Under the pieces are notes generated by a model that saw nothing but the letters and a program-made list of their open reading frames with translations, was not told the DNA's origin and did no database searches. Shown piece after piece: positions 11,958 to 39,659 of a stretch of DNA of 64,000 nucleotides (its first letter is position 1; every line of letters begins with the position of its first letter). Source of the stretch: Psammoneis japonica (taxonomy: Eukaryota); assembly GCA_008632985.1 (NCBI GenBank), contig QPGO01000186.1:62001-126000 (forward strand). Direction: 5' to 3'. The position numbers and the translations under genes were made by a program.

Positions 11958-11980
11958 CAAACAACTGACCAACGGTGTCT

Positions 11981-14478: not shown

Positions 14479-15335
14479 GATTTTTCTGGCAAATTCAACA
14501 ACACGGCGTATCTCTTGTATGTTATTGACTACCGCGCTAGATTAAGGAGGTTCTTGACAAAGATGGCGATGGTTTCCAGTTTCCAGTTTCCATTCCCATA
14601 GCCCATGGTCGATGGTCGATGGTCGATACTCGATACCGTGTATTAGATATATGGTGATCTCGCTACGCGTGCCCGCAGACAGACGAAGATGCGGGTGGGA
14701 CGTACTACGCACGTACGTAGTATGTACTTCTAGCGTAAGTAAGTAAGTACCGTACTGTACGGCACAGTACGCACGCGGCAAATGCTACCGTACACCACCG
14801 GCAACAAGCGACAGCTGAATGAAACGAGCGAAAAAGTAAATCGGCGCGCCGCGGCAATGACAGTCACGGCATTGCATTCCACCTCGGATAAAACTGAAGA
14901 ATCAATTAAGGATCCTTAGAAGATCTTCTGCTGCACTGCTCTGTTGATGCAAGAGCATTAAAGATGAAATGCTGCGACCTCATCACACTCACACAGAGTG
15001 CGGAACTCCTTCACAATCAATCAGACATCACCACACAATTGTTGTTTGAATTCGATGCACAGTTGGTTGTTGATTGTCAGTGCAGTGGAAGGGGTTGATG
15101 ATCAAAATTCATTGCATCAGCAAAGCACATCATTGATTTTGTGTGGCAGCTTGTGCTCCACGTCTGGCGGGGCAACAACAATCTGACGCCGTGCGCGAAT
15201 GAGCGTGCGACATTCTTGCCCGTCATGTCTGACTTTTTTTTAATTTAATTTAAAAATTTTTACATGCCGTGTCAGAAATCTTGCTTCTGATTTATTTTTT
15301 TTGTCAAAGTCACAAGAAAATTTAAACATGACAAC

Positions 15336-15500
15336 CACACGGACAACGTTCCCGACATTTTCAAGTGCAACACTTGTCCACTTTTCATCGTGCAACAATT
15401 TGCCTTTGGACCAGCCCCTGATTCACATTGCCTTCAAACTGTGCTTTAAATCTAACAAGCACACGGACAACATTCCCAACATTTTACAGTGCAACACTTG
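15336..15500 (+). repeat. 41-bp direct repeat pair near the island left edge (possible subterminal repeats)
   Basis: cacacggacaacgttcccgacattttcaagtgcaacacttg (15336-15376) vs cacacggacaacattcccaacattttacagtgcaacacttg (15460-15500); two CG/CA differences. Confidence 0.8.
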
Positions 15501-15546
15501 GATGCTGTTCACCATGTGAAAAATCTCTTTCCGGTCAATGCCCGGT

Positions 15547-16800
15547 TCACACTCCATTGTGTTGCAGCTGCCGAACTGAGTTGAATTCCCAGTTGATGCC
15601 TCTGCCATCCTTGTGTTCTGCCACATGCCAGCAAATGTCACTGCCATGCTGCCCGTGTGCTTGTGTCATCCTTGCTTGCTTCTGTGGGTCATTGTTCACT
15701 CTGCCTCCTTGAGAACCCGTTTGTGTCGAAGCGCTGTTGTCGGTTGCTGCTGCTCCCGGAGTCTCTTCCTCTTTGCTCCCCTGTTCGTCATTCCTTCCTG
15801 TGGCCTCCTCCTTGCTGTCACTCCAATCAGTTTTCAGAGCAGCCCATCCCCTCATGCTGTGCTTCTTTTTTTTCTTTCATTTTTTGCCGCACATGCACTC
15901 TCCGATTTCTTTGTCTGCAGGTGCTGTGCATCGACTCTGCTGCAATTCGTTCTCTCCTTCACCACCGCATCATGGAGTTTGTTGCACTTGTCGATCCCAT
16001 TCTGGTTCCATCCTTGATTTTGCTTTGCACCTTTCCCCATGAAAGTGCACTTGGGGGCCATGGGTTGGGTTGGCTGTTGCTGCACTCCATTTTCTTTGAA
16101 TTGCTCTTCGATCTCTGCCACAGATGTGGCTGTGTTGCAGCAGTTGTCACACATCAGCCTGGCAAAAGCTTCCACACTTGTTGTCAGCCAATTGCTGACA
16201 CTTGGTTGTCCACCATTTTAAAGGGTTCTGTTCCTGCTGCAAGGGAGCAGCAATTTTCCAAGAACCAGAAGTGCATTCTTGGCAATGCCCTGCCCTTCTT
16301 GATGTCTTCGACACTTTCTGGTCCTTCGCATCTGGCCATTTCTGAGTGAAAACCAATGTGTGAGAACACTGCTCCATCTCATCCACACGCCGCCCGAGTC
16401 GCACTTGCCAACCATCTTCTTTCTAAAAACCTCTTGCCTGTTGTTTCTTCTCCTGTTTGGTCTTTTTCTCACCTTCTCCTTGTTCTCTTCCCACCAAACT
16501 GCACAGTCACTTGCATCCATGTTGAGGTGTTTGCAAACCTTTTTCTGCATTTTGCTCCCAAAAGCTGACTCAACCTCGTTGTGCATCACAAACTTTGTCT
16601 TGGGGTGCACAGCCATCGCAAGCAATCAGTCATCTGGCCATCCACAAACTTTCTCTTTGCCACCTCTGAGCTGACCACCGACATTCCTGCAATCTCCACA
16701 TTGTGGGATCCTGTCTCTGCCATGTCATGGGTGCCAACTGCAACAAATGACACATGACCAGCATTGGCAGGCCAACCCATTTGTTCATCAGAGCAGTTGT
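15547..16800 (-). pseudogene. Decayed gene of an EAF...PKYT...GW family (probably transposon cargo) with relic intron 16342-16408
   Basis: Fragments WWEENKEKVRKR, HFWFLENCCS, TSVEAFARLMCDNCC, PKCT...GWNQNGIDKCNKLHDAVVKER resemble a family motif EAF..L..EN / PKYT / GW..EG..(R/K)(Y/F)N.L recalled from memory, with Tyr replaced by Cys/His. Confidence 0.6.
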
Positions 16801-17377
16801 TGCTGCAACGACACATGTGCCTGATGAATCATTTCATGCCGACATGTTTGCCCTGCCCCTCTGGACCGAACCCAGTCCTGGAGTGTGCGCCTGCCAGCAC
16901 ACCTGTCTGCCCTTCTTAAATTTGCTCCCTCTCTTTGAATGCCAAAATTTTCAAATGACTCATTGTCAAACATCAATTGATGAATTTTGCTTTCCTTTTG
17001 AATGGCAGGTGTTGTTGTTTGCAGCCTCACATCATGTGTTCACTGTGCATTGCATGATCCGCGTGAAGAACAATGGCACTCCCAACTGCTGCATGATGGA
17101 ATTTTCAAATCACCACCCAATTTTATTTTTTGGGCACAATTTTTATAGATGAAGGGGCTGCAGTCCGAACACTTCTTTTTGCTTTTTTAGCTGGCCTTTG
17201 ACATCTCGCTTTGCCGTCTGGGTCCCCATGCTCTCAGCCGTCCCCTGCTCATTGCCCACAACAAACAGAGCATTGTTTGACCACGGTCGCAACCAGCCAG
17301 TGCGTTAAAAATTTCCATGGTTTGGTTGTCTAGTTTGAGTTAAAACTTTCCAGGAAATGAGGCCAATCTCTTGACCC

Positions 17378-18390
17378 TCACTCATTGTCCAGTCCAGCTC
17401 TTGCCTTTCTGCCTTCCTCAACAACACCCACTTCCTTGCACACACTTTCATGCAATTCAAACAAGCGCTCCACAATTTGGTGCAATCCACTGATGTGACC
17501 CTCTCTGGCAGTGTGCACTCCTGCACAGCACACCCTCAATCCCAAGAGTGCCTTCTGGTAAAATGCCAAGTCTCCGCTTACCAGTGGAGGGCAATGTCCA
17601 TCTGCAAAAGGCCGTTCGGCACCCAAACCGGCATTGTGCTCATCAAGATAAACCGTGTCCAACACGGTGTCTTCTCTTGTAACCACCGCATCATCTCTCA
17701 CAGGCGGCAGAGCACACACAATTCTTGGGAACTGGCATTCTTTGTCAGCTTTTTTGCAAGCCACCACAATCGTGGAAGGCTGTTGCATCAAAACATCAAC
17801 TGGTGTGTCTCCACTTTCAAGTCCACCAAATCCAGCATCAAAGTCACTTTGTCCACATGTGTGTTGCAATGGATTTTGCTGTTTCTCATCCACCCCTTCA
17901 AAAATGGTTGCAAGCCATGCCTGCAAAACCTGTCACCATCCACATGTTCCACCGCGACACAACAATTGAAACTCCTTTGTCCACACATGCGTTCTGTTTT
18001 TATCCAATTTTTCATGCAAACTGAAAGTCCGGAAGTCTGGATCAATGTGGTCTCTTTGCAAACAAAGCAACAGCCTTGCAACTTGGCATCTCCACATTGA
18101 AGTGCATCTGGGATTGCCCAAGTTGCGCCTCTGCATTTTCAACACATCGTCTTGCTCCACTGCTTCTCACAAAGCATTGAGCATGTGTGGCCTCAATGGT
18201 TTGTCAACCAAGTCCATTTTCTTCAACAATGCTCTCTTGCTGAGGCAGGAAAACATGCACTCCAGGATGCCTTTTGTGGATGCAAGGCAACCCAGGCTGC
18301 CCAGCATGTCGCACTGTTTGCAATTGGAGAAAAGCATGTTCGACGCCAGCGCCAAGTCTCTGTTGCTGTGATTTGCATCCGCACACATTT
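17378..18390 (-). pseudogene. Decayed ORF of unknown function, weak F-box-like segment
   Basis: Protein-like minus-strand fragments; KGILECMFSCLSKRALLKKMDLVDKPLR loosely fits an F-box pattern. Confidence 0.3.
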
Positions 18391-19699
18391 GGGAGCATGA
18401 TGGGTGTCAAAGCTGCACTGGCAGTTGCCCGCACACACTTGATTCTTGAATTTTCATAAATTGGGCAACAGACCATTCATTCTTTCTCTGGCAAATTTTC
18501 AGTGTCCTTGAATGAAATGATTGAGTCATGTGTTGTGCATCCCCTTTGTGTGCAATGAATGTCATGCAAAAGTGCATCTTTTGTTTGTCACATGTTGCAG
18601 AAAGAGAACATGAAATGTCAATGTTCACTCCAATTCTTTTGGTTTGAATTTCACAGATTTATGATGTAAATCTGCGCACTGTCGCCAAAACAGGTTTGAC
18701 ATTTTGTGCAATTCAATTTTCATTGATGTGGACAATTTCACTGGCTTGCCATGTGGCCTCATGCGATGCTCCCCACACTGTGTCTCCATGGTCACAATGT
18801 CACACAGCAGCTTCACAACTGTGTCGCTGTGTGTTTTTGTCAGGCTGCACCCTCACCTTGCCGCCACATCCATTTTCTCCTGCCATGTCGTTGTCACATT
18901 CCAGCTTTCACCCAGTGTCTCATCTCCCACCCATTCCAATGGGACTTGATTGCAAAAACAACAAAATCTCTTGGCAATTGTGTGCATTTCCAACCCGGTC
19001 AGTGTGTCAACAAGAGGACCTTGATGCACAAGAAGGTCTCTTCTGTTGGATTGTCTCCCACTGACATCAATCATTTGTTCTGCACTCTCAACACGGATGG
19101 ATTTCTCAGTGCACTTCCAACTGGCCAAGCTTTGGTGTCATCCGGCCAAGAGCACTGCATTGCTGTTCAATGGTTTGCAGCAACAAACATCTGTCATCTG
19201 CGTTGAGGGAGGTGGCAGAGGAATTGTCATTGCAGACAGCCAGACAAAGAGAGGCTGGTGCCAGGAGAAAATCTCTTGCCCAGAAAAGAAAGCGCCCACA
19301 AGATGCTGACTTTTTGGAAAAGAGCACATCTGCTGATGGGAATGGTGGTCATTCTGTTGGTTCCTGTGTGGAGGGACTGTTGATCAAATCACCAAAGGAA
19401 ATGTCAGCAGAGTTTTGCCTGTGCTTGGACTGCTTTGGACAGTCAAAGTCTGTCCATCCATTGTCATTTGGCCCTTCTGCTGCCCAAGATCTACAAACAT
19501 CCCAGGAAGGTGACATTTGCAATTCTGTGAAAACCAAACATGATGACACAAGTGGTTGTGAAGTGCCAGTTTCCAGCACCACCAACTCTGTTCAACAATT
19601 GCCAGAAGGAGCAGTTGGAGACGACTGTTGCGACGAGCCCCCTTTGCTGATCAAGTGGAGTTGGACAACCACAGTTTCCGATTTTGCGATGACTCATCA

Positions 19700-20390
19700 G
19701 ATGCTGCCATGATCAACACTGCCAAGAATGTCACTGTCAACAACAATGTGTTGGTTGTTGGCATTGTTTTTGGTGATGAGACAACCAACGCATCCACCCA
19801 GGAATGCAGAGATGCCGCACATTGCCAGGCACCAGTCAAAAATGGCTTCAATGTCCACACTGTGGACTGCCGTCACACAGACACTCCAAACCACAATCAC
19901 ATCAATGCAGATGTACGGGTCCAACAATTGGGCTGCCAAGGAATGCATCTGCAACTCTGCATTGATGGACGTTGCATCTGTGACCAAATCACATTTCAAC
20001 GACAGTGTCTTGACAGATTCTTTTTTCAGTCAATCATTGACTTGCTTCCGTCAAAAGCTGTCGGATGCAGGCAATGTGTTTCTGCCTGTCAATTCACAGA
20101 TGGCCCAGTGTCTTTACAAAAACTGGGCTGTGGTTGGCAAAGTGTGGATTGTCAGGTGCCTGTGCCATGATCAGTGGGAGGAAATGCCTCTTTTCCATCC
20201 CTCTGCAGTTGCGCCACTGGACTGTCACAGAAACGAGGGAGAAATGCATCCTCACAGTGAAGATTTTGGAGTTACGTTGTCAGAGGCACGTGCATCTTTG
20301 TGCTGTTTCACACTGGCTGTTCCTCTTTGCTTGTGCTCACTGCTTGTCATTCGTTTGTTTCAAGATCAAGGGCTTTGTTTCCAATGAACA
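19700..20390 (+). pseudogene. Decayed class-I SAM-methyltransferase-like ORF
   Basis: Across one frameshift: VLVVG, helix QECRDAAHCQAPVKNG, FNVHTVD, HINAD, ALMD, helix FFSQSLTCFRQKL, SDAG, NVFLP; order matches a Rossmann MTase core. Pattern inference only. Confidence 0.4.
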
Positions 20391-20399
20391 TCACGAACC

Positions 20400-22140
20400 A
20401 GTTGGAACTTTCCCAGCCAATGTTGAGAGAATCAACTTCATTGCTCTCACTCCATGACAAAGCAACTGCATCACTGCCACTTGTGAGGTTGCAAACTCAT
20501 TGATGGCAGGTGATGGTGTTGATGGCAAGGTTTGCACAAGATGTTCCTTTGAATGTCTAGAAAGCTGTGCAATCTGTCCCATGTGCTGTCAAATGCCACT
20601 GCGAAAGGCTTGGACTGCCAAGTCTCTTGCAGACAGTGACCACAAGCTCAACAAAGTGTCAGATGCCACAGAAGCCAACTGCGGTTGCCTGGGTGGAAGG
20701 AGGAAGGCGGAAACCAGCAAGGTGGACATTCTCAAAGAAAAAAATTTCTGTCGTTGGGCAAAACAGCACCAACCGCTGGACACCCTGAATGGGCAAGACA
20801 ACAAGCACTGGGGAACCACCTCCTTCTTCCCAACAGACGAGAAGAAGTCAAAAGCACAGTTGTTCCCAGATTTTGATCTCGCCAATTTGGAAAAGATAAA
20901 AAATTCATGGGAAAGGCAGCTGTTGTTTGTTGAGAAAAAACGGGGCTGCCAGATTCAAGTGCAGCTCCGTTTGCACATGAACTGGCACGTAGTGACTGGA
21001 ATGGAGTTGGCAAACAAACTTGCATTGGAGCCAGGTGGTGACGCTCGTGTGTTGCCAAATTCGCACAATCATCCACATTCGTCATTGCACCTGATGGATC
21101 CGATTGTTGTTGACGAACACAATGTCACTGGAATTGATGCTCCTGCTGGCGGCAAACATCTTTTTCAAATGCTTCAATTGCCACGGGAGATTGCCGGACA
21201 AGACCTTTTGTCTCAAACTGCCAGCACTGTTGAGGATGGATCATGCAGTGGACTTGGTGATGAGTTTGTCATGCTTTCAAAAGCAGACAAATGCAGAAAG
21301 TTTTGCTCCATGGACAGTGGGACAAATGCAACAGGTGGGAAATGGAGCAGAAGCTGTGGCGTGGGAGCGGCAATGCCGGGATGCCCACCCGGAGCACCCG
21401 ACCAAGAATCTCCAAGGTTGCGGTGGTGGATGCTGCAACTCTCTGTGATGATTGTGCATGGCGTGTGCCATGGGATGCTTGGTGGAACACAATGATCGCA
21501 ACAGGGTGCAACAAGGGCCATGAGACAAAAACGCAAATCATCAAAGATGGCTGAACTGCCCTGATGATCCATGGGACGTTCTGAGAGAGTTCCATGCACA
21601 CACCTCCTCAATGAGGCAGCGACTTGGCATTCGGATGTGAGCAATGGAAAGAACAACAATCATGATCACATTGCTTTGGCCTCACATTTTGTTGAGGACT
21701 GGTCCATGTTTCTATCCCAAAAGAATGTCAACAAGCTCATGGAGCATTGTGTGCCTGCAACAAACAGCTGCTTCACTCACTTGTTGCACACTCGGTCTGT
21801 CATTGACAGCCAGTGGAGAAGCTGGAATTAAACACAAATTGTCCACATGTGGAGTCCCTGATTGCAGCATTGCAGGAACACTTGGATGCCATTGACCTTT
21901 GCACACTCAGCAACCAGGAAGAAATTTCTGAGGCAACGGAAAAGATTCTGTCCATGGCCGAAACACACGCAATGTCCAATTGCAGAGACAGAAGGTGCAT
22001 CAAGATGAAGGAGGGTGAGACTCAAATGACAATGCTTGGGTGCATCACGTGGCTGTGGATTTTGTTTTGCAATTGCTGTGATGGAGCTGTTTGTCTCCAA
22101 CACATTGCAGAGCACAAGGGTTGGTTTGCAGGGAGCACAA
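20400..22140 (+). pseudogene. Decayed large ORF of unknown function (possible SRA-like segment)
   Basis: 331-aa ORF 20500-21495 plus downstream protein-like fragments; Tyr-free; ends where it meets the truncated transposase. Confidence 0.45.
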
Positions 22141-24263
22141 CAAAAAAATTTGAGGCTCTTTTTTTCTTTGTCTTGTCAAAATCTGGATGGCAACGAAGAT
22201 GGAGCATGCTCCGTCCCTCTGCGGTCTGACCCATCAGTGCTGTCGCAAACAGCTTCCCCATCTTTTGGTTGCAGGTCAAACTGGACAAGGCACAAAAGCC
22301 GTTTCACAGGACAACGGTGGAAACATTGATCTCTGACCTGGTCTGCACCACTGAGATCCAAACATGTGGTTTGCCAAATTGTTCAGTTGGCCTTTGGCGG
22401 AGTCAGGCAAATCATTGACAATGACGGAGAGCATCTGAGGGACTGTGCCGCCTAGAACATGTGCATTGGATTGGGCAATGCAAACCCAAACACACCCTGA
22501 CAATTGTTTCCCATCCCAAGAGGAAAGATTGAGTTGTCAACCGTGTGTTGGCCAAACACCTCATGAAGTGTGGTGGAACAAATGTTCATGCACCGGATGA
22601 CTGCACCATGTGCCTTGGAATGGATTGATTTGGCTTCAGCCTTGGACATCACTGTGGCCATTTGTGATTCAACAAACAGATGCCATGGACTGTCAAAAGA
22701 ACTGGGTGGTGGTCCAAGAGCTGCAACAGTCAAGCTCCATCACTTCCTGAGAAAAACACCTGCAGCAATGCAATGATTCATTGCTGCACATCCAGGAAGT
22801 GTGAGAGGCATGACCAATGCAGCAGGTGTTTTTCCGGCCAGAAACAGGGCCGGTCACTTGTGCGGCATTGACAGCATCACCCAACAATGTCACGCTGTGA
22901 ACAACAATGCACTCAAAACAATGCTGATTGCCAAGTTGGACTCAGCAGACAGGAGGTGATTCTTGCACTTGAATTGCAGACACAAGAAGGACAGATAAAA
23001 TGTGGTGATACCTCTGACATTCAACCCAAAAATGGGGTTCTTTGTTTTGTGCCTGTGCATTTCGGAACAAATCCAAGAGGACGCCATGCTTCAAAACGTC
23101 GGTGGACACATGCCTTGATGAGAGTCACAGAGAAAACAAATGACTCCATGGAATGAGGTGTGACCTGTCCTTTCCCAGTTTTGTTGGTGCAGCACACAAC
23201 AAACACATGAAAGGAACCAGGGACGGCGGGAACATCACTGCCACAAAAACAGTTCCTGCAAGTTTCACCATTCTTCATTTCAGCATCGTCACAAAGTTTC
23301 CAGTCACTGTTCTTGTCCAGCATGGGTTCACTGGAGAGCACCTGAGACCAATGTGAATCAGGAGGAACATCAAGATTTGAAAGATCAGCAAAAAGGGGGT
23401 TGTTGAACAGGTCATGCAGTTGGAGGGAAAAGTCATGCACAGGGATGCCGGGAGACAGCTCCTGCAGTGGGTCATTCTTGAATTGGTTGACGATGGAAAC
23501 AGACTCAAGGGGGACTTGCTGCAGCACTGGAGTGACAACGCTGGGCAACATCAACTTGAGCTTGGACATGAAAGTTCAAGAAGAGGGTGTTTGTCGGGTG
23601 ACAGACAACCCACCACTGGAGAATTCCTCCTGCACAGTTCTCAGCAACACATCTGTTGCACTGATTGGGTCACCCTTGGAGCAACACAAATTCAACATGC
23701 AGACCATGGATGTGGTTTCACTGTTGTAAACTTCGGGCACCATGAGGTCCTCATCCATGGAGAGATGTCCAACTTGATCAAGAGTGGCAAAAGGGCCGGA
23801 TTTGGCAACCGTGGTGGCAGAACCCTTGGTGTTGGAAACAAATTCTTCATCAGGAAACTGGTGTTCTGAAACATCATTGACGGGGGGAGAACGGAATTGT
23901 CATGGGAACCACGGAGCTCTGGTGCAGATGAAAATGCACAATTGGTTGCAACGGCCGGGGATTGAGTCTCATGTGACCTTGTGGAGTTGGCCCAGTGTTG
24001 GAGTCAGGCCCTGCAGCAAGAAATTCAAAGGGAGGAGAGCCAAGGGTAGAAGAGGCAGCAACGTCCACTTGTTCATCCGATTCTCCCATTTGGGGCTGTT
24101 TGGCATGAGCCGCATTGGATTGATGGGATGAAATGGCGTGAAGGCTTTGAGAAAAGGACAGTTTGCAGGGAAGACAAGTTCTCAGGTGGTGTTGAAGACC
24201 AGTTGGGAAAAAACGTTTGCCACACATGGGACAATCATTTCCAACAGCGAAGGGGGGCACCAT
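22140..24263 (-). mobile_element. Plavaka-type transposase pseudogene, 3'-truncated
   Basis: Colinear motifs: N-terminal CPMCGKRF...HHLRTC; VHDFSLQLHDLF; (D>N)KTG...MESFVFS; AWRPLGFVP; LLGD; HTVDNS...GNNCQGVFG...PMHMF; RSMFP; multiple frameshifts and stops. Confidence 0.8.
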
Positions 24264-24399
24264 TGTTCATGTTGTAAAAACAAGTGGTGTGAAAATAGAG
24301 TGGGACAAACCACGTGGTAAAAACAACACATGGCAGGTGACAAGATTGTGCTGCACAAATCAACTACATGTGAGCGCGCAAGATTGTAGCTTGGTTTAA

Positions 24400-27169: not shown

Positions 27170-27872
27170 TTTGCTCATGCACAGTGGCTTTGTTCTCCAC
27201 GTGTGGCAGTTGAGGCTATAACAGCAGCAGGCAGCAGCAGCACAGCAGCATGCAAAACAGCACAGCTGCCCACAAGGAGCTCATTGCACTTTGCAAAATT
27301 CAAGCTCTTTGAGGCAACAAACCAACAGAGCTGTGGCCACCATGTTGTTGTCTGCTGGGTTGCAAATGACACCAGAGTGGTTGAAGACCCCAGTCTTTCA
27401 TCTGCAGGACTCACAACAGAGTGACAGTTCACTGTGTCCAGAGAACTTGCAATCATTGTGTCAGCACTTTTGTTGCTGCAAACACAACAGCAGCAGAAGT
27501 GTCAAGGCAGACCAAGCCACAGCAAGTGCTCTCCTGTCAAAAACCAGGGTTGCTCTGTTTTAACTCAAACACAGTTGGCTTTGTTGGCTTTCACATCCAT
27601 TGACTGAGAGCTGTGTCAAGGGTGACAACAACAGCAAAACCCTGACAGTCATTTCTCTCTGTTTGCACCGCTCAATGTTCTTGAACTGACAAAATGAGTG
27701 TTTTCCAAAACAGGCATCTTGACTGGGGCAAATGAACAGCTGATGGCCAGCTTTGACAGAGATGATTTCACAATGATGCAGCTTCCCCACATCAGCCACT
27801 GCTTTGGCTCCATCACAGAATGCTTGTCTTTCTGGACAGAGCCAGCAGCCCAAGAAAACCCAGACTGAGTGC
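27170..27872 (+). repeat. Diverged ~0.6-0.7 kb direct repeat, copy A
   Basis: Shares tctttcatctgcaggactcacaaca, cacttttgttgctgca, caaggcagaccaag and ggacagagccagcagcccaag with 35300-35912. Confidence 0.85.
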
Positions 27873-28536
27873 TCAAAAAAGCATCTTCTTAGACTGTTTG
27901 ACTGTTTTCTAGATGCCTGCAGCAGACCAAGAAACCTTTGTCCACAGTGGCTTCAAAAGTTGCACAGAGCTGGCAGGAATCAAAGACTTGTGTGCCTCTG
28001 GTTTGCTTCATGCAAGATCAAGCTCAAGTGCACTTCACAGCAAGCTCCCTTTATGGCATCTTGTGTGTTGCATTTGTGAGCTAGAAAATTCTTGTGTTTT
28101 CCAACATTGTGTGCACATCTGCAGGTCTGCTCTGATTTGATGCATGGCAGCAGCTGCCAGGGCTTGGCATGGCAGCAGAATTGCCAAACCAGGTTGTGAA
28201 GAAACCTCAACATGGAAACAGCAGGCTGTGTGCAAGCAGCTGCAAACATCAGTTGACAAAGACAGCTGGGAAGAAAACATGTGCAGGGGGCAGCAAAAAT
28301 TTTTGTAGAAAAAGCAGGAATTTTGCAGAGGCCATTCCTCCTCAGTTGCCAGTGGCTGTTCTCTGTTTCAGCTGCACTTTGTGACATTTGGAAAGATCAA
28401 AAGACAAAACCACTGTCAAGTGAGTCAGCCAGAAGGCAACATTTTGTGCCTTGATGCAGAGCACACCTGATGGCAGCAAGAGCCGCTCCATGGAAAATCA
28501 ACCATGACAGCTTTGTTGTTGTTCATCAGGGGCCCA

Positions 28537-29270
28537 AATCAATGAATCCTGTGTCTGCAGATGACCAGACATTGGTCTGCTCTAACATGTGTGAGCATGA
28601 GCAAGTGAATTTATTTGTGGCTAAATCAGTCAGATTTGTCATGAATCCCCCCCCCCTTTGCGATGAATGGGGGTGATTTGAAAACAAACAAATGTTCTGC
28701 ACCTCTCCAACAAATGTCATGGGTTCAAATCAAGGGTGTCCAACAAGTTCACTGCAGTCAAACAAGTTGACTCACACAAAACATTCCATTTGATCGCTGT
28801 CAAGAACAACTGACTGGCTGTGGATTGGTTGGCTGGTTTCCCAACTTGTCATCATGCAAACCCATTGATTGCAACTCTTTGGGCCTCAGAATGGTGATGC
28901 ATCTTCACAACAGAGGGTCAATGCCCTGAACTTGAGCCCCAAAACAGGAGACAGCAATCAGGGGGTGGAATCAATGAATCCTTGCATCTGCCGACAACTG
29001 GACCTCAGTCTGCCCCAACATGTGTGAGCGCAAGCACATCAATTTGTTTGCAACTAAATCAGTCAGATTTGTCATGAATCACACCCATTTGTGACAAACA
29101 TGAGTGATTGCAAACAAACAAATGTCCCACACCTCTGACAAATGTCTGTGGGTTCAAATCAAGGACGTGCAAGAGTTTGTTGCAATCCAATCATTTGACT
29201 TCCACAAAACACTTCATTTGACAACTCTTGTCAACTGACTGGCAATGGAGCTGGTTTGCTGTTTTCCCAA
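28537..29270 (+). repeat. Diverged tandem duplication, period about 430 bp
   Basis: ctaaatcagtcagatttgtcatgaatc, aaacaaacaaatg, gggttcaaatcaagg and caactgactggc occur in both 28537-28843 and 28968-29270. Confidence 0.85.
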
Positions 29271-29329
29271 AGTGCCATTTGGTGACAATGTTGCTTTTTT
29301 CAACTTGCTTGCTGATCAGCATGCTGGGG

Positions 29330-32300
29330 TTCAGTTTGGCAGTTTGGCTTCACAGCATTGTTTGCAATGATGTGAGTGCCACTTTTTGCATGTTGTCTGC
29401 CAAACTGGCATTGACTCCAGTTTGCACATCTTGGCACAGTTCACCATGTGGTCACCTTTGTCCACTGACTCATCATTCTCTTCCTCCTCTTTCTTTTCAC
29501 AGTTTGCCACAATCTTTCTGTGCAAAAGTCGTTCACTTGCAACATCTTGTTTGATTTCCTGCACCAGCTGCTTGAAGAACTTGTCTGCCCTTGGCAACCA
29601 TCATTTGCACTCCCTTGGTGTCTTCCACTCTATTGGAGTTTCCCACCATGAAGTGCTTCAGTTGTCTCGCGCACTTTTTCTTCCCAGTGCCACATTCCTT
29701 GTCAGGGAGTTCCTTGTTGTGGCAGCTCTTGAGGGACTTCTCCTGCACCTCCTTGAACTTGCTTGCCATCTCCACAATTGTTCCTTGCTCCGTGGACTCT
29801 TCAGGGTCTTTTTCCAAAATGATGAATGTGCTTGATCCATTTTCTGCATCCTCCAGCTTGGTAATGACGAGATCCAGCATGGCAGTTTCACACAAGTCTT
29901 CCCTGCCGGCAGTGGGGTGTCCTTGGTCATCAACATCTGTGCTGCAGTCTGACATCAAATGGCTGTTCTCATTGTTGCTGTTGTGCTCTGCATGCCACAC
30001 AACAAAGTTGTTCTTCAGGAGCATGTGGGGGTGAACGCCCCGGGGGTGAATGCCCCGGCACATGACATGCCCAACCTTGTGTTTTTGGAGAGGCTTTTCT
30101 TCCACAAATGTCTCCCATGGCTGGCTGCAACAAGCAATTGCAGAACACTGTCTGCAATGTTGGATTCAACAATCACTCTTGGAATTGTTCTGGCAAAGGC
30201 AAGATGCAATTGTTCTTGTTGCAGCATGCACAAAGCACTGCATCATCAGCAACAACATGACATTGATGTCAGTTTGTTTCCTCCTCATTCATGACAATCC
30301 TCAGCAACACTTGCTGTGAAATTTGTCTTGCTGGGCCTGACATGCATTTGATTGCTTTGCCACCAGCCAATCCTGGCACAACCTGTTTTGTTTCATTTTC
30401 ATCTACAGGAAATGCAGGTGTGTCTTCTGCTCTGCCTCTGGAAGCTCTGCAAGCATTCCATCCATCAGCAGCATTGGCCTGCCATTCCAGGCACAGTCTC
30501 TGTGCAGCGTGCAGGTTTCCTCTGCCTGACTGCCTTGCACCAAACACAAGTGTGATGCAGAGAAACACCTTTTTTTGACATGGTCTCTCACCTTGACTGT
30601 GTCCCTGCCCATGTTCTCATCATTGTCCACCAACTTGGCTGGGTTGATCTGCCTCTGCACTGTGGTTGCCATGTCTCCTTGTTGTTTTGTGTGTGGTTTG
30701 TTTTCCCAGTGCTCATCTCAGCAAAGGATGTGCACACATGGTTGCCAGGCCATTCACCGTTGCAAGCTGGATTTCCCCAAATTTGCAAATCTTCTGATCT
30801 GAACATCAGATGGTCATTGACATCATGCATTCTCTGATGTTCACTTGTGCAACTCGGGTTTGCTCACCCAAGTTTCAAAAACAATGCAATTGCTCATGAC
30901 TGAATGTCTGAATGTCCAAAATTTCAAATGTTGTTTTGCAGTTCTCCAACATGTCAATTCGATTTCAAAACAATCAGTTTGCTTGCTTCCAGCAAGTCTC
31001 CTTTTGTTTGTGTCAATCTTGGTTGACCCCCCACTGCAATTTGATCCAAAGCATGTCTTGTCACTGCTGCAAGCCCAGCCAAATTGGTTGTGTTGATGTT
31101 GCAGCCAGTGATTTGGGCACACTGTTCCAAGCCACTGCATTGCCCATTTGTCAACAATGGGGTGAGGAGGAGCCCTTGCTGTCGTCCTCCTGTCAGTGTT
31201 GCTCAAACTCTCTCCCAGCACCTCCAAAAACACTGTTGACAGCTGAGATGTCAACCCCCCCTCTGGTGCTTAAGCTGTTTCCTCCCATTTGTCCCCTGGC
31301 GCAACAGCGGCATGTGATGTTGAGTTTTCTGCTGCTGACACAGCAGAAAATCAGAGAATTTGCATGTCTGGTGCAAATCGGTTGTCCCAGCAAGCATCTC
31401 TTTTGTTGCAGCTTCTTGTTGGCCATCAGCTGGTCAACAATGTTGAAGGGGCCTTGGTTTTGAAAGGGCATGTCCACCTCCGTCCACCATCCTTCCATCT
31501 TCTTGAAAAAGTGGGCATTGATGAAGCACCAGCAACAAGTCACAATGGCTTGCACACTGGGAAAATCTCCCCACACACTGTCTCCCAGCACAATGCAGTG
31601 ACTCCATTGTTGTTGGTTCTGTCCAACACAATGGCAATTGGCGCAGCTCCCCTCACAGGGTGAAAGAGTTTCAATCCCATCTTGAGTCATTCCAAAGTTG
31701 CTGAGGCAGCGAATGACATTTTTTTGCAGATGGATGCATGTGCCACTTGCCCACCTGCAGTTTTACTTTGCCTCCTTTGGCTGGGCAAAAGTGCAATCCT
31801 TGACAGGATTGGTGAACTGACCCAGAAAATCCACCTTGTCCAACATGGTGAACAATGCACTTTGTTTGTTGATGACATTCCGGTTTTGTGACACCAAGGA
31901 AAAAAGTGCAGAATTGCATGCAAGGGGATCACAGTGACACACAATGAAGGTTCACCTCAATGTGCATCACTGTGTTCTGAGTGGTTTGACCCATTCAAGT
32001 GACTTTTTGTCACACCATCACCAGTCTTGTCTGCTCCTGTTGGGAACAGCATCCAAGATTCTTGTTGCATGGTTGGAATGCTCATTTGTGGCTCTGGCTG
32101 GCAAAACACAAATGCTTGTTTTGCATGTTTTGCCTCTTCCTAAAAAAATCCATTGACAAACATTGACCTGCTGCAACTTGTTCCTTGGTCTGGCCCACAC
32201 TTCATGGGTGCAATCATGCTTGCGTTCTGGAGCGGACTCTCTGATTTCCTGGGGCAGCACACCAGTGAGGCACTTCTCAACCTGGTGATGACAGTCCAGA

Positions 32301-35200
32301 CCCAGTTTCCTGCAGCACACAACTTCATCCAAGTGACACAACAGCATGGCTCATGAAGCAAAACTTTCATTTCTGGGTGTGGGAATGACACCTCAAACAC
32401 TTCCAGCATTTATTTTCATGCTCCACATGCCCAACAACAAATGACATGATGTCAAAAGGCACAAAGAAGGCTCCACCTTCTTTCATTGCCACTGACAGAT
32501 CTGGTGTCATTTGCTGAAAGCCCATTTGCCAAACTGGTCATTCAACCAACCCTTTTGCAACCAAAAAAAGTCCATGTTAATTTCTGGTGTGAAATTGCCT
32601 CCAAACTTGCTCAGCATTTGATCAAGGAAGTTGGGGTTTCACACATTGCAGTTTGGGTGTCGTTTTCCATGACCACCATTGCCAAGAGACATGGTGGAAA
32701 ATTTGCATTCTTTGTTTCCTGATTTGTTGCAATTGTGCTGCAATTGCTGACAGTCCAGCAGCCTGGCCATGTTGGATCAAAGCTTTGCATTGTGAGAAAA
32801 CAAATGGATGTTTGTGTCATCAAGCATGTTTTGGTGTGACACAAGAACATTGATGTCTTTGGTCTGCATCATGCACAAGAAAAGAACCTTCACCTAAATC
32901 CCAGAAGGTGGTCCATCCACAACCTCACTTGTTCCATCCAGTTCATCATTTTTTTTCCACCTTTGTGGGAATGACAACAATGATGTCTTTGGAGGGAGGG
33001 TCAGCAATCTGAGCCTTGTCGTTGAATGCACCTGGCTGGTCATCTCCTTCTTCCTGTGTCACAGCACTGTCAAAAATGAAATCATCCATGGAAGTGTTCC
33101 CAATCCTGCTGGCCCCACCATTGGTGCCATCAGTTTTGTCTCCATTGTCAACTGAATTGGCAGCAACATCAATTTCCTTGTCCTCCCAGTGTTGGTTGGT
33201 CTGCTCTTCTGTCAGAGTTGGCATCTTCTTCTCCCAATGGTGTGTGCCACATCATTTGATGCTGGGAATGCCATCTTCACCAATGAGGGAGAAGAGATGT
33301 TGATTCTCAACAAAATGTTCCTTTTTGTCAAATCTTTGATTCTGTTTTTGTGGCTGTTGCAGGTGACAGACTCTTGCAGCTGTCACCGTGATGGGCGACA
33401 CCAAAATTTTGCACAAGAATCTCCAATGCTTCTGCCCTTTCATCGTTTGTCAGCTGAGCAAATTGCTTTGTGGCACCAAGGTTTGTCACAGGGTGAGCCA
33501 AGTCCCACGGATCTTTGTGTCCTGAAATGACTGCATCACATCCATTGGGCATTTGCAGAGTGAAAATTGTCTGGAACTCATTGATGTTGGTTTCACGAGA
33601 CCAACTGCAGCAAAGTTTGTGTTTGTTTTGTAACGCAAAGTGATGGAAATTTTGAGTGCCTGTGTTTGCATCAATCCACTCCAGCAGGGCAATGACATCT
33701 GTTGTCATGTCATCCATTCTTTGGCTCACACCCAAGTTTTTGAGTTCTTCAATTGACATTGCCCATTGGCGATCTTCCTTGTTTGGTGATTTGACGTGTC
33801 ACCTCTGTCTAGGAGGATTGCTGCTGGATTCATCAGTGCTGGTGTGGTGGTGCTTCTTGCCATCCTCCACAGCAGATCCACCACTTTCATCATCACAGCT
33901 GTCATTGTCATGACCGCTGTAAAACATTGTCATCAACATCACTGCAGTGCACGTCAATGAAATCACACCCACTTGGGTTCATGCAATGAGGGGTCATTCC
34001 AATGTCCCCAGCAGCCATTCAGAAAAGTTTGATGGCATGAGACGGAAACAAATGAGGGTGGACATGTCCAGAGAATTGCGCAGCTCATCTGAGTGCTTGG
34101 CGGCAACACAGAAGAACTGGTTGAAGCCAGTCTGACAGCTTGCCATTGTGGCCAGCTGCACACAACCATGACAAATGCCCAAGTCCTCATGAATGTTGGG
34201 GGGGGGGTTGTCTTGGCCAGAGAAACCCAAAGATTCCACATGACCCAAAGTGGGAAACACAATGGCACCCTGCTTTGTGTCACCCTTGGATTGTGCAGAG
34301 ACTGACTCCCATTGGCAGCCATCATCAAGAGTGCCAGGATGGCTGTTCCATGCCCTTTTCCTCACTTGAAACAAAAACAACAATGCAACACAGTTTGAAA
34401 ACAATGTTCCAATCAGGGGCTGGCATGGTTGGACAAAAGACTGATCTTTGGCAGATCCAGAACTGCTCTTCTTCTCACCATTGCCAGGCAAACCAATCTG
34501 TGCAGAAGAGATGAACTTTTCTCTCCATTTTGGCTTGAGGCACCTGTGCATCAAGTCACAAACCCTTGAGCAGATGATCCCCAAATTCTTCATTTTCTGG
34601 CAGTTGAGATTCTTGCAAGTCCTTGAAAATGAATTGTGCATCTGCTCTTTCACTGGCTCACACTGATGGGCTGTTTTTTCATGCCACGGGCCTTGTCAGC
34701 AATGGTGTTCCTGATGGCACCCAGCCCTTTGTTCAGCATGTTTTCACTGTGTTGCCAGATTTAACTTTGGTGTCAGCATCAATGGCTTGCAGAAGATTGC
34801 ATGCTACAATCACAAATGTCTTTGGTTTGGAGCATTGAGAAAAGACCAATTTGCACCAGTTGCAGGTGATTCCATGTTCAGACTCAATGTGAGAGAGGAA
34901 AAGAGTCTCCAGTGTGGATGCAGTGATGCTCTGAGTCTGTGCCACAAAACTGGCTTTGGCAACAAAGCTGCTCTTCTGCAGAAACATTGAACAGTTGTGG
35001 CAACTTTTGGACTTGACAAACTGGCACATGCAATCCACCATTGCCGCCAGGTTCTTGCCACAGCACTCAAGGTTGTTGAAGGCCTCCACAACTTCCTGTG
35101 CTGAACAACAAACCACCCAGAGGCCTTCCCCTTCTTCCTTTCCAACTTGCAGGTCCAACCATGGCTTTGAACACAACAGAGCCCATGTTTGCATCCAAGA
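29330..35200 (-). pseudogene. Series of decayed minus-strand ORFs of unidentified element(s)
   Basis: Protein-like fragments (29533-30105, 30269-30568, 32946-33224, 33328-33759, 34733-35194); no RT, integrase or transposase motif recognised. Confidence 0.4.
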
Positions 35201-35299
35201 GATTGATCCATGACATCATTGACAGCAATCACTTGCTCAAAAAAGTGGCACAATCCATTCTTGGGATTGTGCCACAAATGGTGGCAGGGCTTGTCATGT

Positions 35300-35912
35300 T
35301 TGCTCAGATGGCAGCTTTGTTTTCTCCACACAGTGGGGCTGTGACCAGCAGCACAGCAGGGTGCAAAGCAGCACAGTCACCTGCAAAGAGCTGTGCACAT
35401 CTTGGAAGCAACAAACCAGAAGAGCTGCAGCCATTGTTGTCTGGATTGTAAATCCATGCTGGAGCAACTCCAAAGCCCCCAATCTTTCATCTGCAGGACT
35501 CACAACACAATGATGGTCCCCAGAGAACATGTCATTGCTGGGACAACACTTTTGTTGCTGCACACACAACAGCAGGAATGCCAAGGCAGACCAAGTCACA
35601 GTGAGCACTCTCTTGTAAAAAAACCAGGGAGCCGCAGTTGCTCTGTGGACTTTTGAACAAAGTCAGCTTGGGTGTTGGCTTCCATGCTCCATTGGCTGCA
35701 GGTTGTGTCAAGCAGGCTGTGTCAAGGGCAGTGACAACAGCAGTTCTTTCTCTGTGTTTCTTCCAAAACAGGCAACTTGACAGGGGCAAATGAAACAATG
35801 ATGCAGCCCCCCCCCCCCCCCACACACACATCAGGCACTGCTTCAGCTCCAAACTCAGAACACTTGTCTTCATGGACAGAGCCAGCAGCCCAAGGGAGCC
35901 CACACTGAGTGC
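35300..35912 (+). repeat. Diverged direct repeat, copy B (of 27170-27872)
   Basis: Same shared blocks; both copies end at ctgagtgc; reciprocal CA/TG differences such as cagcaagtgctctc vs cagtgagcactctc. Confidence 0.85.
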
Positions 35913-36669
35913 AGGGTGGACACTTCATTTGTCATTGTGGGCTGCAGTGCCACCCAGCAGACCACACTGTTCACAGTCCTGCCAAACAACCATCAGAAAT
36001 TGGACCACCAACTTTTGAGTGGTGCCACCAGGAATGCAAGCACAGTTGAGGTCTTGGCATTGCTTTCTTTTTTGTCTTCAGAGTTTCTGCATGAGTGGCA
36101 TTTGTGCTGTGTAAAAGTTGTGCCAAAAGAACAAGCCCACCCTTTGCCCTGGTTCAATTCTGATGAGCTCTGTCATTGAGCCCATTTGAAAGTCCAAAGT
36201 TTGAGCTTCACCATCAATGACTCTGCATCTGCTGGGGTGCACTGGGCTTGATGCAAATTTTCTCAAACTGGGTGACATGGCTTTGTGCACCATGCTCCAA
36301 ATGATTGCCAGCAGCATGGGAAGAAACTGATGTGAGCGGCAACAGTTTTAAAGATTGCACAGTCAACTGTGCGGAGAAGATCATCTCCCAAGGAATGGAT
36401 CATCCTGCCATCCAAGAGTTGAATCTGGTCCAATGTGCACCCTGTGATGTTTTTTAAGTTCAGAAAAAAGCAGGGAGATACAAGCAACGTGGAAATGAGA
36501 CTCACTCAGCATGTTCACGCTTCTTTTCTGACAACTTCAGCAAAGACAGAGTGCCCAGCTGCAAGCAAGAAACCATTTCGTTGCGGCTTTTGCGTGGACG
36601 AGAGGCACTTGGACCTGAAGTCGTGGGTGGCAACCACCGGCAACCAGTGAAAAGGATTTCTCTTAGTTG

Positions 36670-36830
36670 CGGGAATCACCCAGAGGTGCCACAACGGCAT
36701 GAGAAACATGTCTCTCCTGTTGCACACTGGGTCGTGGTTCCACGTCAACAATGCAAGGAGATGAAGAAAGGAGGAAAGACATTGATGAAGGAACATGTGG
36801 AAAACTTGGAACGAATCGGGTTTGTGAGGT
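36670..36830 (+). pseudogene. HA-domain relic (second copy at about 41775-41930)
   Basis: EVPQRHEK...QQCKEMKKGGKTLMKEHVENLERIGF aligns to VPQIYE...QRKDYENLKEGKKSPLTEEKIKKLEDIGF of the intact gene at 405-1931. Confidence 0.7.
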
Positions 36831-37130
36831 TGATCAAGGATGAGGTGTGGTCGATAAGGCATTAGAGTAGTGTAGGGTGGTCGTGTGATAGTCTTGCGGA
36901 GCACGTCCGACAAGGTCATCGGTGAGGTTCAGAACGCAAGATGCTAACACTCAAATGTACACCTTCTTTGTACCACCTGTATCTTGAGAACGTTTTTTTG
37001 GTGTTATCGCGTTGGGAACCATTCCGCGTCCTTGTGCGGTAAAGTGTTACGTGTGATGTAACGGCATATCGCCCAAGTGAACTATGACGGCACCCCCATT
37101 AGTGAGCTATCGTCACGAGCATAAGTAACA

Positions 37131-39466: not shown

Positions 39467-39659
39467 CTTTCAGGTCTCTAAGACTTACGCAGGCGATGAT
39501 TGATAATGAATAGGGATGTTGTTTATACTAAGGGCCTTGTCTTCAAACCGGACGATGCATGCTGCTACATTTAGAATACGCAACGTTCTGCTCTCACCAC
39601 TCACCACAACAAGAATTCCTGCTCTCAGCTCTCAGCTAGCTCTCAGGGCTCTGCTATCG

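Follow-up and report, generated by a model that had tools for sequence, protein, structure and literature searches.

The window analysed here, a stretch of 64,000 nucleotides from the diatom Psammoneis japonica (contig QPGO01000186.1, positions 62,001 to 126,000 of the forward strand), raises the question of how some 22 kb of DNA came to be nearly free of TA and poor in CG, with normal genes on either side.

Extent and composition of the islands

Windowed observed/expected (o/e) ratios bear out the first-pass annotation, which had noticed that TA is nearly absent, CG rare and CA and TG dominant over about 22 kb between normal flanks. Borders were set from a 250-bp profile and from lists of TA and CG sites. 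The extent first given, 14950 to 36850, needed only refinement to 14960-36854, but a second island at 39656-41909 had been missed.

14960..36854, no strand, island 1, TA-free zone; last normal TA at 14959, dense TA again from 36855
16000..36487, no strand, CG-poor core of island 1, lying within the wider TA-free zone
39656..41909, no strand, island 2, TA-free and CG-poor; CG-poor part about 39764-41743

In the ten 2-kb windows of 16001-36000, TA o/e is 0.02-0.11 and CG o/e 0.05-0.37, with CA at 1.71-1.98 and TG at 1.61-1.88; the two islands together have the same TA and CG ranges, with CA and TG at 1.6-2.0. The 18 flank windows of the same size (1-14000 and 42001-64000) gave TA 0.46-0.76, CG 0.85-1.22, CA 0.96-1.28 and TG 1.01-1.29. 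At the density of the flanks, island 1 (21,640 bp) should contain 833 TA and 1208 CG, but it contains 89 and 264 (Poisson tails ~1e-238), the CG deficit having a matching gain of TG and CA. Inside the CG-poor core, CG o/e is ~0.3 at 16-24 kb and 0.05-0.2 at 24-36 kb. At the left border the TA at 14959 is followed by the next only at 15241. GC content is equal in islands and flanks (~0.47). The TA-poor zone of the window is region-restricted and its neighbouring genes are normal.

The ORFs had been described as almost free of Tyr and rich in Cys and His, and six-frame translation agrees: Tyr is 0.13% in the island against 2.13% in the flanks (x0.06), and relative to the flanks Cys stands at x1.78, His x1.53, Gln x1.62, Trp x1.46 and Arg x0.48.

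Read support and copy number

Contigs were built independently from one public DNA run, probably of the source sample of the assembly. They cover 30 of 30 bins of 13500-33400; seven at single-copy depth differ from the window at 1-10 places each, per 0.5-2.5 kb, and one that matches 14053-15286 spans the left border of island 1 with 1 difference. Failure of raw reads to support the sequence was one of the refuting outcomes named in the first-pass annotation; the read-derived contigs do support it. The chance that the islands are an assembly or sequencing artefact is therefore negligible: the sequence is present in one sample only, probably the assembly's own, but independent contigs fill every bin, match at single-copy depth and bridge the left border, and the pattern follows gene borders and paralogue structure.

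Two segments of island 1 are present in many copies:

15492..16819, no strand, high-copy repeat segment; summed contig depth ~1000 against ~57 in the single-copy flank
22132..24787, no strand, high-copy repeat segment; depth 735-1054 against ~57 in the flank

Depth peaks at up to 18x that of the flank, and roughly half of the island stays close to single-copy depth, counting copies of at least 90% likeness. Among the 40 listed of 284 copy differences, no copy had TA where the window has TG or CA, and in 3 cases the window has TA and the copy TG or CA, so these differences give no sign that the high-copy families lost TA once amplified; copy-specific CG/TG and CG/CA differences account for 14 of these 40 places.

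A relic reading frame in island 1

One stretch of island 1 can be assigned to a protein family:

19742..22115, + strand, relic ORF in three frames with TGA stops; unnamed protein family, profile E 5.8e-70, positions 98-893 of 1210

The proteins of this family have 1200-1500 aa and are known from metagenomes only. The relic has no Tyr in 452 codons. Its relatives might have proved equally TA-poor and Tyr-free; instead, Tyr makes up 1.4-3.6% of ten family members (2.3-3.6% of the six longest), and the one relative compared at the DNA level has a TA o/e of 0.56. A single column of the family alignment has Tyr in every homologue aligned there (5 of 5), and the island copy has His at it; at the 12 columns with Tyr in at least two relatives it has His at 3, Phe at 3 and Cys at 0. 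In the oriented relic the gains are strand-symmetric, with CA at 0.1096 and TG at 0.1146 (~0.07-0.09 in the relative). RNA hyper-editing of the ADAR type, fixed by retrotransposition, was rejected as a source since both CA and TG are raised here.

Island ORFs of at least 150 aa number 25, against 12.3+-3.1 in dinucleotide shuffles, an excess that indicates coding relics. A search of the six frames and of 118 ORFs found no Pfam domain of transposable elements (TEs) or viruses, and a scan of viral contigs found no relatives of the relic family. It is from copy number and this one unnamed family that we infer the label of foreign DNA for the islands.

Conversion by mutation

Pyrimidine-purine steps make up 0.2411 and 0.2406 of the islands and 0.2369 of the flanks, and the share-out among them alone differs: CA plus TG, TA and CG stand at 0.1425, 0.0385 and 0.0558 in the flanks and at 0.2248, 0.0041 and 0.0123 in the island. 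When conversion of TA and CG was simulated in flank DNA, the dinucleotide profile correlated with that of the island at r 0.97, compared with 0.72 for the unconverted DNA. Neither AA (0.0794 in the island, 0.0827 in the flank) nor TT (0.0937 and 0.0779) is depleted; mutagenesis at WA motifs by Pol eta was rejected on this ground, as the first-pass annotation had argued from the abundance of AA and TT.

Paralogues within and beside the islands were compared as well:

27235..27872, + strand, direct repeat; partner 35346-35912, 75% base identity, 83-93% in purine/pyrimidine code, 17 CA<->TG swaps
35346..35912, + strand, direct repeat; partner 27235-27872
28525..29279, + strand, two adjacent direct copies (28525-28853 and 28957-29279); 77% of bases, 89% in purine/pyrimidine code, 10 CA<->TG swaps
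35912..37502, + strand, segmental duplicate of 40934-42625; crosses the right border of both islands
40934..42625, + strand, partner of 35912-37502; reaches into the 3' end of the ThrE gene
42258..43751, - strand, ThrE gene; 3' end overlapped by the segmental duplicate 40934-42625
37979..39181, - strand, control, tandem 144/174-bp units in a gene between the islands; 88-96% alike, TA and CG normal

At conserved pyrimidine-purine steps, three island pairs carry 48 double swaps between CA and TG and 20 single-step differences, whereas two control pairs outside the islands carry 1 swap (in 223 conserved steps) and 45 single-step differences (Fisher p 8e-15). The segmental duplicate joins both situations in one alignment. 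Its island part is 75% identical and swap-rich, its outside part 89% identical with normal TA and CG; 23 swaps lie up to ~36860 (13 in 35912-36480, 10 in 36480-36860) and 1 beyond. Since the swaps end at the island border, the process acted after the duplication and on the island part only. Transversion divergence is also doubled in the island (8.7% against 4.0% outside), so that relaxed constraint or alignment noise contributes as well.

The step balance, the confinement of swaps to the islands and the normal Tyr and TA of the relatives support the view that TA and CG were turned into TG and CA by mutation and are not a native composition. The change from TA to TG or CA is itself deduced from base composition, from the swaps and from a family of distant relatives (26-32% identity). 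Some of the swaps could have arisen in DNA depleted beforehand, with TG passing through TA to CA; such recycling would still need the mutator yet weakens any dating. A native origin, either from a source without TA and CG or through removal of UpA and CpG by selection on RNA as in RNA viruses, appears highly improbable. Joint suppression of CpG and UpA is indeed reported for cytoplasmic RNAs and RNA viruses (PMC3829696), but the depletion here is far more extreme and affects both strands of broken, frame-shifted sequence; the one identifiable gene has normal relatives, pyrimidine-purine steps are conserved, and the swaps represent conversion in place after local duplication.

Separate losses of TA and CG

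TA loss has reached saturation (o/e 0.03-0.11) in places where CG stands at ~0.3, with ~70% of CG lost, and the TA-free zone overshoots the CG-poor zone by 100-370 bp at three borders and ~1 kb at the fourth. Because borders and kinetics differ, the data speak for two processes, rapid mutation of TpA and a slower decay of CpG. The earlier proposal of a second mutator at TpA besides CpG decay is sustained by these differences together with the step balance, the island-only swaps and the normal relatives. Survival of TA fits a one-strand neighbour model (likelihood-ratio chi2 79, 3 df), with 20 TTAA surviving where 34.7 are expected and 0 ATAT where 62 are; this points to 3' neighbours favoured in the order T >= C > G >> A, presupposing an ancestor with the tetranucleotide frequencies of the flank. 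CG loss is slower at sites flanked by G+C (survival 0.51 for CCGG, 0.09 for TCGA). Diatom methylation is reported to be mostly at CpG, with highly methylated repeat regions of up to 30 kb (PMC5124317), and the CpG loss of the islands is attributed to what would be a separate, methylation-dependent decay.

A single deaminase acting on both A at TpA and C at CpG seems improbable. Both depletions share the same islands, and ADAT2 homologues able to deaminate both A and C in DNA are described for amphioxus and Trypanosoma (10.64898/2026.01.13.699255). However, extents and kinetics differ as described, the neighbour geometry is unlike (3' G for C, 5' T for A), CpG methylation of diatom repeats already accounts for the CG loss, and in the giant-virus (NCLDV) region of Bigelowiella natans 210 of 211 changes are reported as AT>GC (10.64898/2026.01.13.699255).

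Relation to known processes

The first-pass annotation knew of no description of such a process; one has since appeared. TpA to TpG/CpA hypermutation of integrated viruses was measured in B. natans (Mettrop et al., bioRxiv 10.64898/2026.01.13.699255, 2026). According to that preprint, 230 of 231 mutations in two viral regions of mutation-accumulation lines were A>G/T>C, all at TpA, at a rate raised by orders of magnitude; the genome has 124 TpA-poor, CpA+TpG-rich clusters of mostly unannotated or TE-like ORFs; a hypermutated region can be single-copy, with no copy-number dependence; and the authors propose an ADAT2-like adenine deaminase. The diatom islands are, by analogy, the same kind of footprint: TpA would be converted on both strands (as judged from balance, swaps and Tyr loss), in particular regions with normal flanks, with gain of CpA and TpG and independently of copy number. 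They differ in several respects. The host is a diatom (Stramenopila) and not a chlorarachniophyte (Rhizaria); the islands are near-saturated (TA o/e 0.02-0.11), compared with a Rho of 0.45 given for the active NCLDV region; the target is repeat DNA without viral hallmark; CpG is co-depleted (o/e 0.05-0.37), whereas essentially no C>T is reported in B. natans; and the diatom case is known from a fossil footprint alone, that of B. natans from a measured rate. Our literature search found no description of TpA hypermutation in diatoms.

With fungal RIP the islands share the features of what would be a mutational genome defence, namely transition-riddled repeats, stop codons, fairly sharp borders and a dinucleotide signature. 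A true RIP-type process, in which pairing detects duplicated sequence and triggers its mutation during a sexual or pre-meiotic stage, is nevertheless rather unlikely. Multi-copy parts of island 1 (up to 18x) and its sharp left border would suit it, as would the DNMT4 enzymes related to fungal RID that diatoms except P. tricornutum are reported to carry (PMC9998398). Yet the direction is opposite, since RIP deaminates C mainly at CpA, creates TpA and lowers GC, whereas the islands lose TpA and keep GC at ~0.47. RIP is triggered by duplication, but duplicated genes adjoining the islands are untouched: the ThrE duplicate fragment (89% identity, ~750 bp) and the HA-gene paralogues (84-87%), beside or between the islands, retain normal TA and CG, as do the tandem units. 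Single-copy depth, or nearly so, holds for about half of island 1 at >=90% likeness, and a single-copy region is hypermutated in B. natans (10.64898/2026.01.13.699255). Repeat induction, the sense in which the islands had been called RIP-like, is therefore not supported.

CpG decay of methylated repeats in vertebrates, plants and diatoms likewise converts CG to TG/CA within repeat DNA only, but it explains just the CG half of the pattern, TpA being untouched by deamination of 5-methylcytosine. ADAR hyper-editing of retroelement RNA and APOBEC action on retroelement cDNA also produce deaminase-driven clustered transitions in mobile elements, and ADAR prefers a 5' U (10.64898/2026.01.13.699255). 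Unlike the islands, where CA and TG rise equally in the oriented relic and the change extends to non-coding sequence, these are strand-asymmetric and are inherited only via reverse transcription.

Proposed mechanism

Probably, each island is a cluster of old repeats or mobile elements, part of them multi-copy, that two region-restricted transition processes have rewritten. In the fast process A:T would become G:C at 5'-TA-3' on either strand (TA to TG or CA), to near saturation and ending no more than tens to a few hundred bases from element edges, most likely through an enzyme that deaminates adenine to inosine in silenced foreign DNA. In the slower process CpG would decay to TpG/CpA as 5-methylcytosine deaminates, given the CG methylation of diatom repeats. 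Their joint outcome would be the removal of Tyr codons and of TAA and TAG stops, the halving of Arg and the inactivation of elements.

The same footprint might stem from other chemistry, which we regard as unlikely: the thymine of TpA could be oxidised by a TET/JBP-type dioxygenase, and the resulting 5-hydroxymethyl- or 5-formyl-uracil would pair wrongly with G to yield T>C, or a modified adenine (6mA) could be deaminated. An A>G change on one strand looks identical to T>C on its complement, and the neighbour model can equally be read as a 5'-neighbour preference of a thymine target. In dinoflagellates 5-hydroxymethyluracil is enriched at TpA, and 5-formyluracil leads to A:T>G:C transitions. 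We know of no eukaryotic 6mA methyltransferase with TpA specificity, which speaks against the 6mA route. The B. natans authors, by prediction alone, favour deamination of adenine (10.64898/2026.01.13.699255).

For the adenine-deaminating reading, the data themselves establish the composition of the islands and its origin by mutation, the symmetry between strands, action following a local duplication, and the unequal reach and speed of TA and CG loss; what we infer comprises chemistry, enzyme, targeting signal and defence role. In its widest form, which we put forward tentatively, diatoms, and by extension the ancestor of Stramenopila and Rhizaria or an older one, may have a system of enzymes acting on the chromosomal DNA of silenced repeats or foreign elements, which would deaminate the adenine of 5'-TA-3' and be guided by the very domain signal that attracts CG methylation. 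It would be a heritable genome defence that runs to saturation, an A:T-directed mirror of fungal RIP, and a natural DNA adenine editor that permanently deprives elements of Tyr codons, TAA/TAG stops and TA-containing signals.

Significance

TpA-directed hypermutation of chromosomal DNA has so far been measured once, in the 2026 preprint on a chlorarachniophyte. The diatom footprint would extend the process to at least two branches of the SAR supergroup, beyond a one-lineage curiosity, and would make its end state visible: DNA without TA and Tyr codons in which domain searches recognise nothing, which would account for the lack of annotation in such regions. It is also a warning that TE annotation, divergence dating and gene prediction (long ORFs free of TAA and TAG) may be systematically misled there. 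The process would coexist with CG methylation in the same domains, yet be separable from it. Since diatoms offer transformable, CRISPR-ready model species, the enzyme could be found, and a natural A-to-G enzyme for chromosomal DNA would be of interest to both genome-defence biology and base editing.

Results

Composition and extent of the islands

A 250-bp profile together with site lists placed the TA-free zone of the region picked out in the first-pass annotation at 14960-36854 (island 1), and located a second island at 39656-41909 (island 2) that the annotation had not listed. In the ten 2-kb windows of 16001-36000 the observed/expected (o/e) ratios were 0.02-0.11 for TA, 0.05-0.37 for CG, 1.71-1.98 for CA and 1.61-1.88 for TG, against 0.46-0.76, 0.85-1.22, 0.96-1.28 and 1.01-1.29, respectively, in 18 2-kb windows of the flanks (1-14000 and 42001-64000). 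The loss of TA and CG with dominance of CA and TG, as first described, was thus accurate and even understated. Within 21,640 bp of island 1 there were 89 TA and 264 CG sites where flank density would predict 833 and 1208. The G+C content was ~0.47 both within the islands and outside, and since they also lack any tandem array, a centromere or satellite can be ruled out.

The almost Tyr-free, Cys/His-rich reading frames remarked on earlier were confirmed by six-frame translation, with Tyr at 0.13% in the islands vs 2.13% in the flanks; Cys, His, Gln, Trp and Met were raised 1.4-1.8 fold and Arg was halved, which are the shifts predicted if TAY, CGN, ATA and TAA/TAG codons underwent conversion. 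Self-comparison of the window in purine/pyrimidine code found no further hidden repeats, and Rfam and tRNA scans gave no match. Just within the left border of island 1 lie a stretch rich in T/A runs (15236-15300) and a 109-bp direct repeat (15321-15429 / 15445-15553), and 15236-15300 together with 15321-15553 hold most of the few TA sites that survive locally, in TTAA/TTTA contexts.

The sequence is present in only one public sample, probably the one from which the assembly was made. An independent contig build from that run covers 30/30 bins of 13500-33400; seven contigs of single-copy depth match the window with 1-10 differences each, and a contig at 14053-15286, with 1 difference, spans the left border of island 1. 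On this evidence the island is not an assembly artefact.

Setting and neighbouring genes

The flanking genes are intron-poor and encode HA-domain proteins, an ammonium transporter, PsbQ, an FTO-like dioxygenase, ThrE, lipases and a Rieske protein. The best named relatives of the ammonium transporter are from diatoms (Helicotheca, Pseudictyota, Thalassiosira and a Bacillariaceae MAG; 53-66% identity). On these grounds the window is diatom DNA and does not derive from Bigelowiella. Two gene features were noted in the left flank and between the islands:

11981-14541, minus strand: FTO-like AlkB-family dioxygenase, as two overlapping ORFs (FTO_CTD at 11981-13438, FTO_NTD at 13372-14541)
37796-39469, minus strand, and 360-1289, plus strand: HA-domain-related gene family, copies 84-87% similar

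The upstream side of the FTO-like gene adjoins the left border of island 1; the position of a gene for a nucleic-acid base-modifying enzyme beside a base-modified domain is probably a coincidence. The HA-family genes, in which the Pfam HA match is limited to 402-1931, served as a control and were normal in TA and CG throughout. The copy between the islands contains 144/174-bp tandem units that are 88-96% alike. Beside island 1, 36860-37502 repeats 41970-42625 at 89% identity; the copied fragment comprises the 3' terminus of the ThrE exporter gene (42258-43751, minus strand) together with DNA downstream of the gene. The right flank also carries two short direct copies (48584-48693 / 49254-49364; 84% identical in bases, 94% in purine/pyrimidine code) with no relation to the islands.

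Mutation rather than native composition

Four lines of evidence concur in supporting a mutational rather than a native origin of the island composition, as the first-pass annotation had proposed in reading TA and CG as converted to TG and CA. The first is mass balance: at 0.2411 and 0.2406 in the islands, the summed pyrimidine-purine steps barely differ from the flanks (0.2369), and what shifts is solely their make-up, with CA+TG at 0.2248 vs 0.1425, TA at 0.0041 vs 0.0385 and CG at 0.0123 vs 0.0558. When flank DNA was converted in simulation, its dinucleotide profile correlated with that of the island at r 0.97, compared with 0.72 for unconverted DNA.

The paralogous copies provide two further lines. 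In columns with a pyrimidine-purine step in both copies, three island pairs differed by 48 swaps (CA<->TG double changes) vs 20 single-step differences, and two control pairs just outside the islands by 1 swap vs 45 (Fisher p 8e-15 against the island pairs); identity within the island pairs rose from 69-77% in bases to 83-89% in purine/pyrimidine code. The duplicated segment 35912-37502 / 40934-42625 crosses the right border of both islands, with 23 swaps up to ~36860; past that point there is 1 swap, and TA and CG are normal in both copies. Since the swaps stop at ~36860, the process was later than the duplication and limited to the island part.

The fourth line comes from a relic ORF at 19742-22115 (plus strand). 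A word-indexed protein search with a 345-aa ORF gave no match, and an exhaustive HMMER search found 10 relatives of the longest ORF (best E 2e-25). A profile of seven relatives matched 19742-22115 at E 5.8e-70, running over three frames and several TGA stops. The relatives are 'hypothetical' proteins of up to 1200-1500 aa, solely from metagenome (marine) and run assemblies, with conserved motifs that include W.RKNGCGIA.PG. Neither singly nor as an alignment did they match a Pfam family; a PDB profile search of the family gave just a weak RanBP2-type zinc-finger match, and ESM Atlas searches with the relic ORF and one relative (P0123) gave no usable match. A mixed-alignment profile search returned 8 proteins, all unnamed and all metagenomic. 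For related loci, a narrower alignment led to a single metagenome contig (L001, family gene at 1284-4900), and a contig scan found no relatives in viral contigs. This unnamed family (the relic ORF and its relatives, P0121-P0143) may represent a new transposon or viral gene.

Intact relatives as TA-poor and Tyr-free as the island would have spoken against a mutational origin; instead, Tyr was 1.4-3.6% in the ten family members (2.3-3.6% in the six longest), and the one relative assessed as DNA had o/e ratios of 0.56 for TA and 0.65 for CG. The island copy retains 24/24 invariant alignment columns, and none of its 452 codons specifies Tyr, with Cys at 4.9% and His at 4.6%. At the sole all-Tyr column (Tyr in 5/5 aligned homologues) it reads His, and over the Tyr-bearing columns, just 12 in this distant comparison (26-32% identity), it reads His in 3, Phe in 3, Cys in 0 and other residues in 6.

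What the islands contain

No transposon or viral Pfam domain was found in island 1 by six-frame read-through of both halves, nor in 118 ORFs of at least 90 aa. Pfam traces were confined to part of an HA domain on the right edge and a weak C2HC/C2H2 zinc-finger match at 23877-24266 (minus strand; E 4e-4 to 2e-3, below Pfam cut-offs) inside a high-copy segment. A zinc-finger motif is reported among the domains enriched in the TpA-depleted genes of the chlorarachniophyte Bigelowiella natans (10.64898/2026.01.13.699255). Simulated full conversion alone changed ~17% of residues, removed every Tyr and added ~0.4-1.2 stops per 100 codons. Alteration on this scale would not be enough to conceal a Pfam domain, and the absence of known domains therefore points to unknown families, further decay, or both.

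The island DNA is not random, since ORFs of at least 150 aa numbered 25 and those of at least 200 aa 10, compared with 12.3+-3.1 and 2.8+-1.6 in 200 dinucleotide shuffles. Summed contig depth was ~1000 at 15.5-16.8 kb and 735-1054 at 22.1-24.8 kb vs ~57 in the flank. At at least 90% likeness, depth was near single-copy (55-148) at 24.8-30.1 and 30.8-33.4 kb, where the depth data end; the intervening bin (30.1-30.8 kb) stood at 442. Differences among the genomic copies comprised 206 transitions vs 78 transversions. The islands are thus composites of old repeats or mobile elements, which may derive from transposons or viruses.

Discussion

The loss of TpA and the loss of CpG can be separated. 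At 16-24 kb TA is saturated (o/e 0.03-0.11) while CG still stands at ~0.3, and CG reaches 0.05-0.2 just in the 24-36 kb part. The borders are also offset: in island 1, TA ends at 14959 and CG thins only towards 16000 on the left, and CG is dense again from 36488 and TA from 36855 on the right; in island 2, TA ends at 39655 and CG goes on to 39763 on the left, and CG is back at ~41744 and TA at 41910 on the right. Among 40 listed copy differences (284 in all), 14 were CG vs TG/CA in either direction, so that CpG decay is copy-specific and continuing, and 3 involved TA, which the window keeps in each. From these differences in saturation, extent and copy variation it follows that the TpA process is faster than, and distinct from, CpG decay. 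CG survived best in CCGG (0.51) and worst in TCGA (0.09), and the CpG loss would be attributable to 5mC deamination. Diatom methylation is described as mainly at CpG, with highly methylated repeat regions of up to 30 kb next to unmethylated genes (PMC5124317).

It is very probable that a TpA-targeted, region-restricted mutational process made the islands. In the oriented relic ORF, CA and TG are 0.1096 and 0.1146 (0.0725 and 0.0857 in the relative), and the two are balanced over the whole island. The process is strand-symmetric, which excludes RNA editing fixed by retrotransposition. A Pol-eta WA process is excluded by AA and TT, which are undepleted; the argument to this effect in the first-pass annotation was borne out. 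Surviving TA is concentrated in TTAA (20 vs 34.7 expected without loss) and in TAA/TTA, with ATAT at 0 of 62 and GTAT at 0 of 57 expected. A model with one neighbour rate per strand fits 16/16 contexts (likelihood-ratio chi2 79, 3 df). Its relative doses, set by the base that follows the A, are 2.05 for T, 1.57 for C, 1.23 for G and 0.26 for A, and would tentatively indicate a 3'-neighbour preference of T >= C > G >> A; the model presupposes ancestral contexts like those of the flanks and leaves out any TA newly formed in A/T runs.

As to the chemistry, adenine deamination in DNA is a plausible candidate, and we put it forward tentatively. To our knowledge, ADAT/TadA enzymes always act on the A after U33 in tRNA, which would confer a built-in 5'-T preference. 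The footprint would look no different if thymine were oxidised at TpA or if a modified adenine were deaminated, and either may be the case. As to the targeting, the repeat-induced ('RIP-like') trigger originally suggested is unsupported. Three duplicated sets beside or between the islands, namely the ThrE fragment (89%), the HA paralogues (84-87%) and the tandem units (88-96%), are normal in TA and CG, so that repeat induction alone does not account for the process. The signal may instead reside in the inserted DNA itself, for example as silencing, chromatin or small RNA, which would fit the near-coincidence of the TA-free zone with a CG-poor, presumably methylated, domain. Judged from its targets and consequences, the process may serve in defence.

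Full-text literature searches turned up nothing that describes TpA loss in repeats of diatoms. The first-pass annotation knew of no account of such a process at all; TpA hypermutation has, however, already been reported in a 2026 preprint on B. natans (10.64898/2026.01.13.699255). In mutation-accumulation lines of that species, 231/302 nuclear mutations are given as falling in an integrated giant-virus (NCLDV) region and a virophage region, at a rate ~1000 times background, and 230/231 of these as A>G or T>C, all 230 at TpA. The preprint also describes 124 TpA-poor, CpA+TpG-rich clusters of mostly unannotated or TE-like ORFs, and its authors propose an ADAT2-like adenine deaminase (10.64898/2026.01.13.699255). 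The TpA footprint as reported there is common to both organisms, and the diatom islands show it at saturation. The diatom differs in host lineage, in the lack of a viral hallmark in its islands and in its CpG loss, whereas the B. natans spectrum, as given, has essentially no C>T. The words diatom, stramenopile and CpG are absent from the preprint (10.64898/2026.01.13.699255). On balance, we lean towards the same system operating in both. Fungal RIP is alike in outcome but opposite in direction, since RIP makes TpA.

The kind of process is therefore already known, although described only months ago, and the diatom islands are new for that kind. They extend TpA hypermutation to diatoms, display its end state and separate TpA loss from CpG decay, and the finding brings in organisms that could yield the enzyme.
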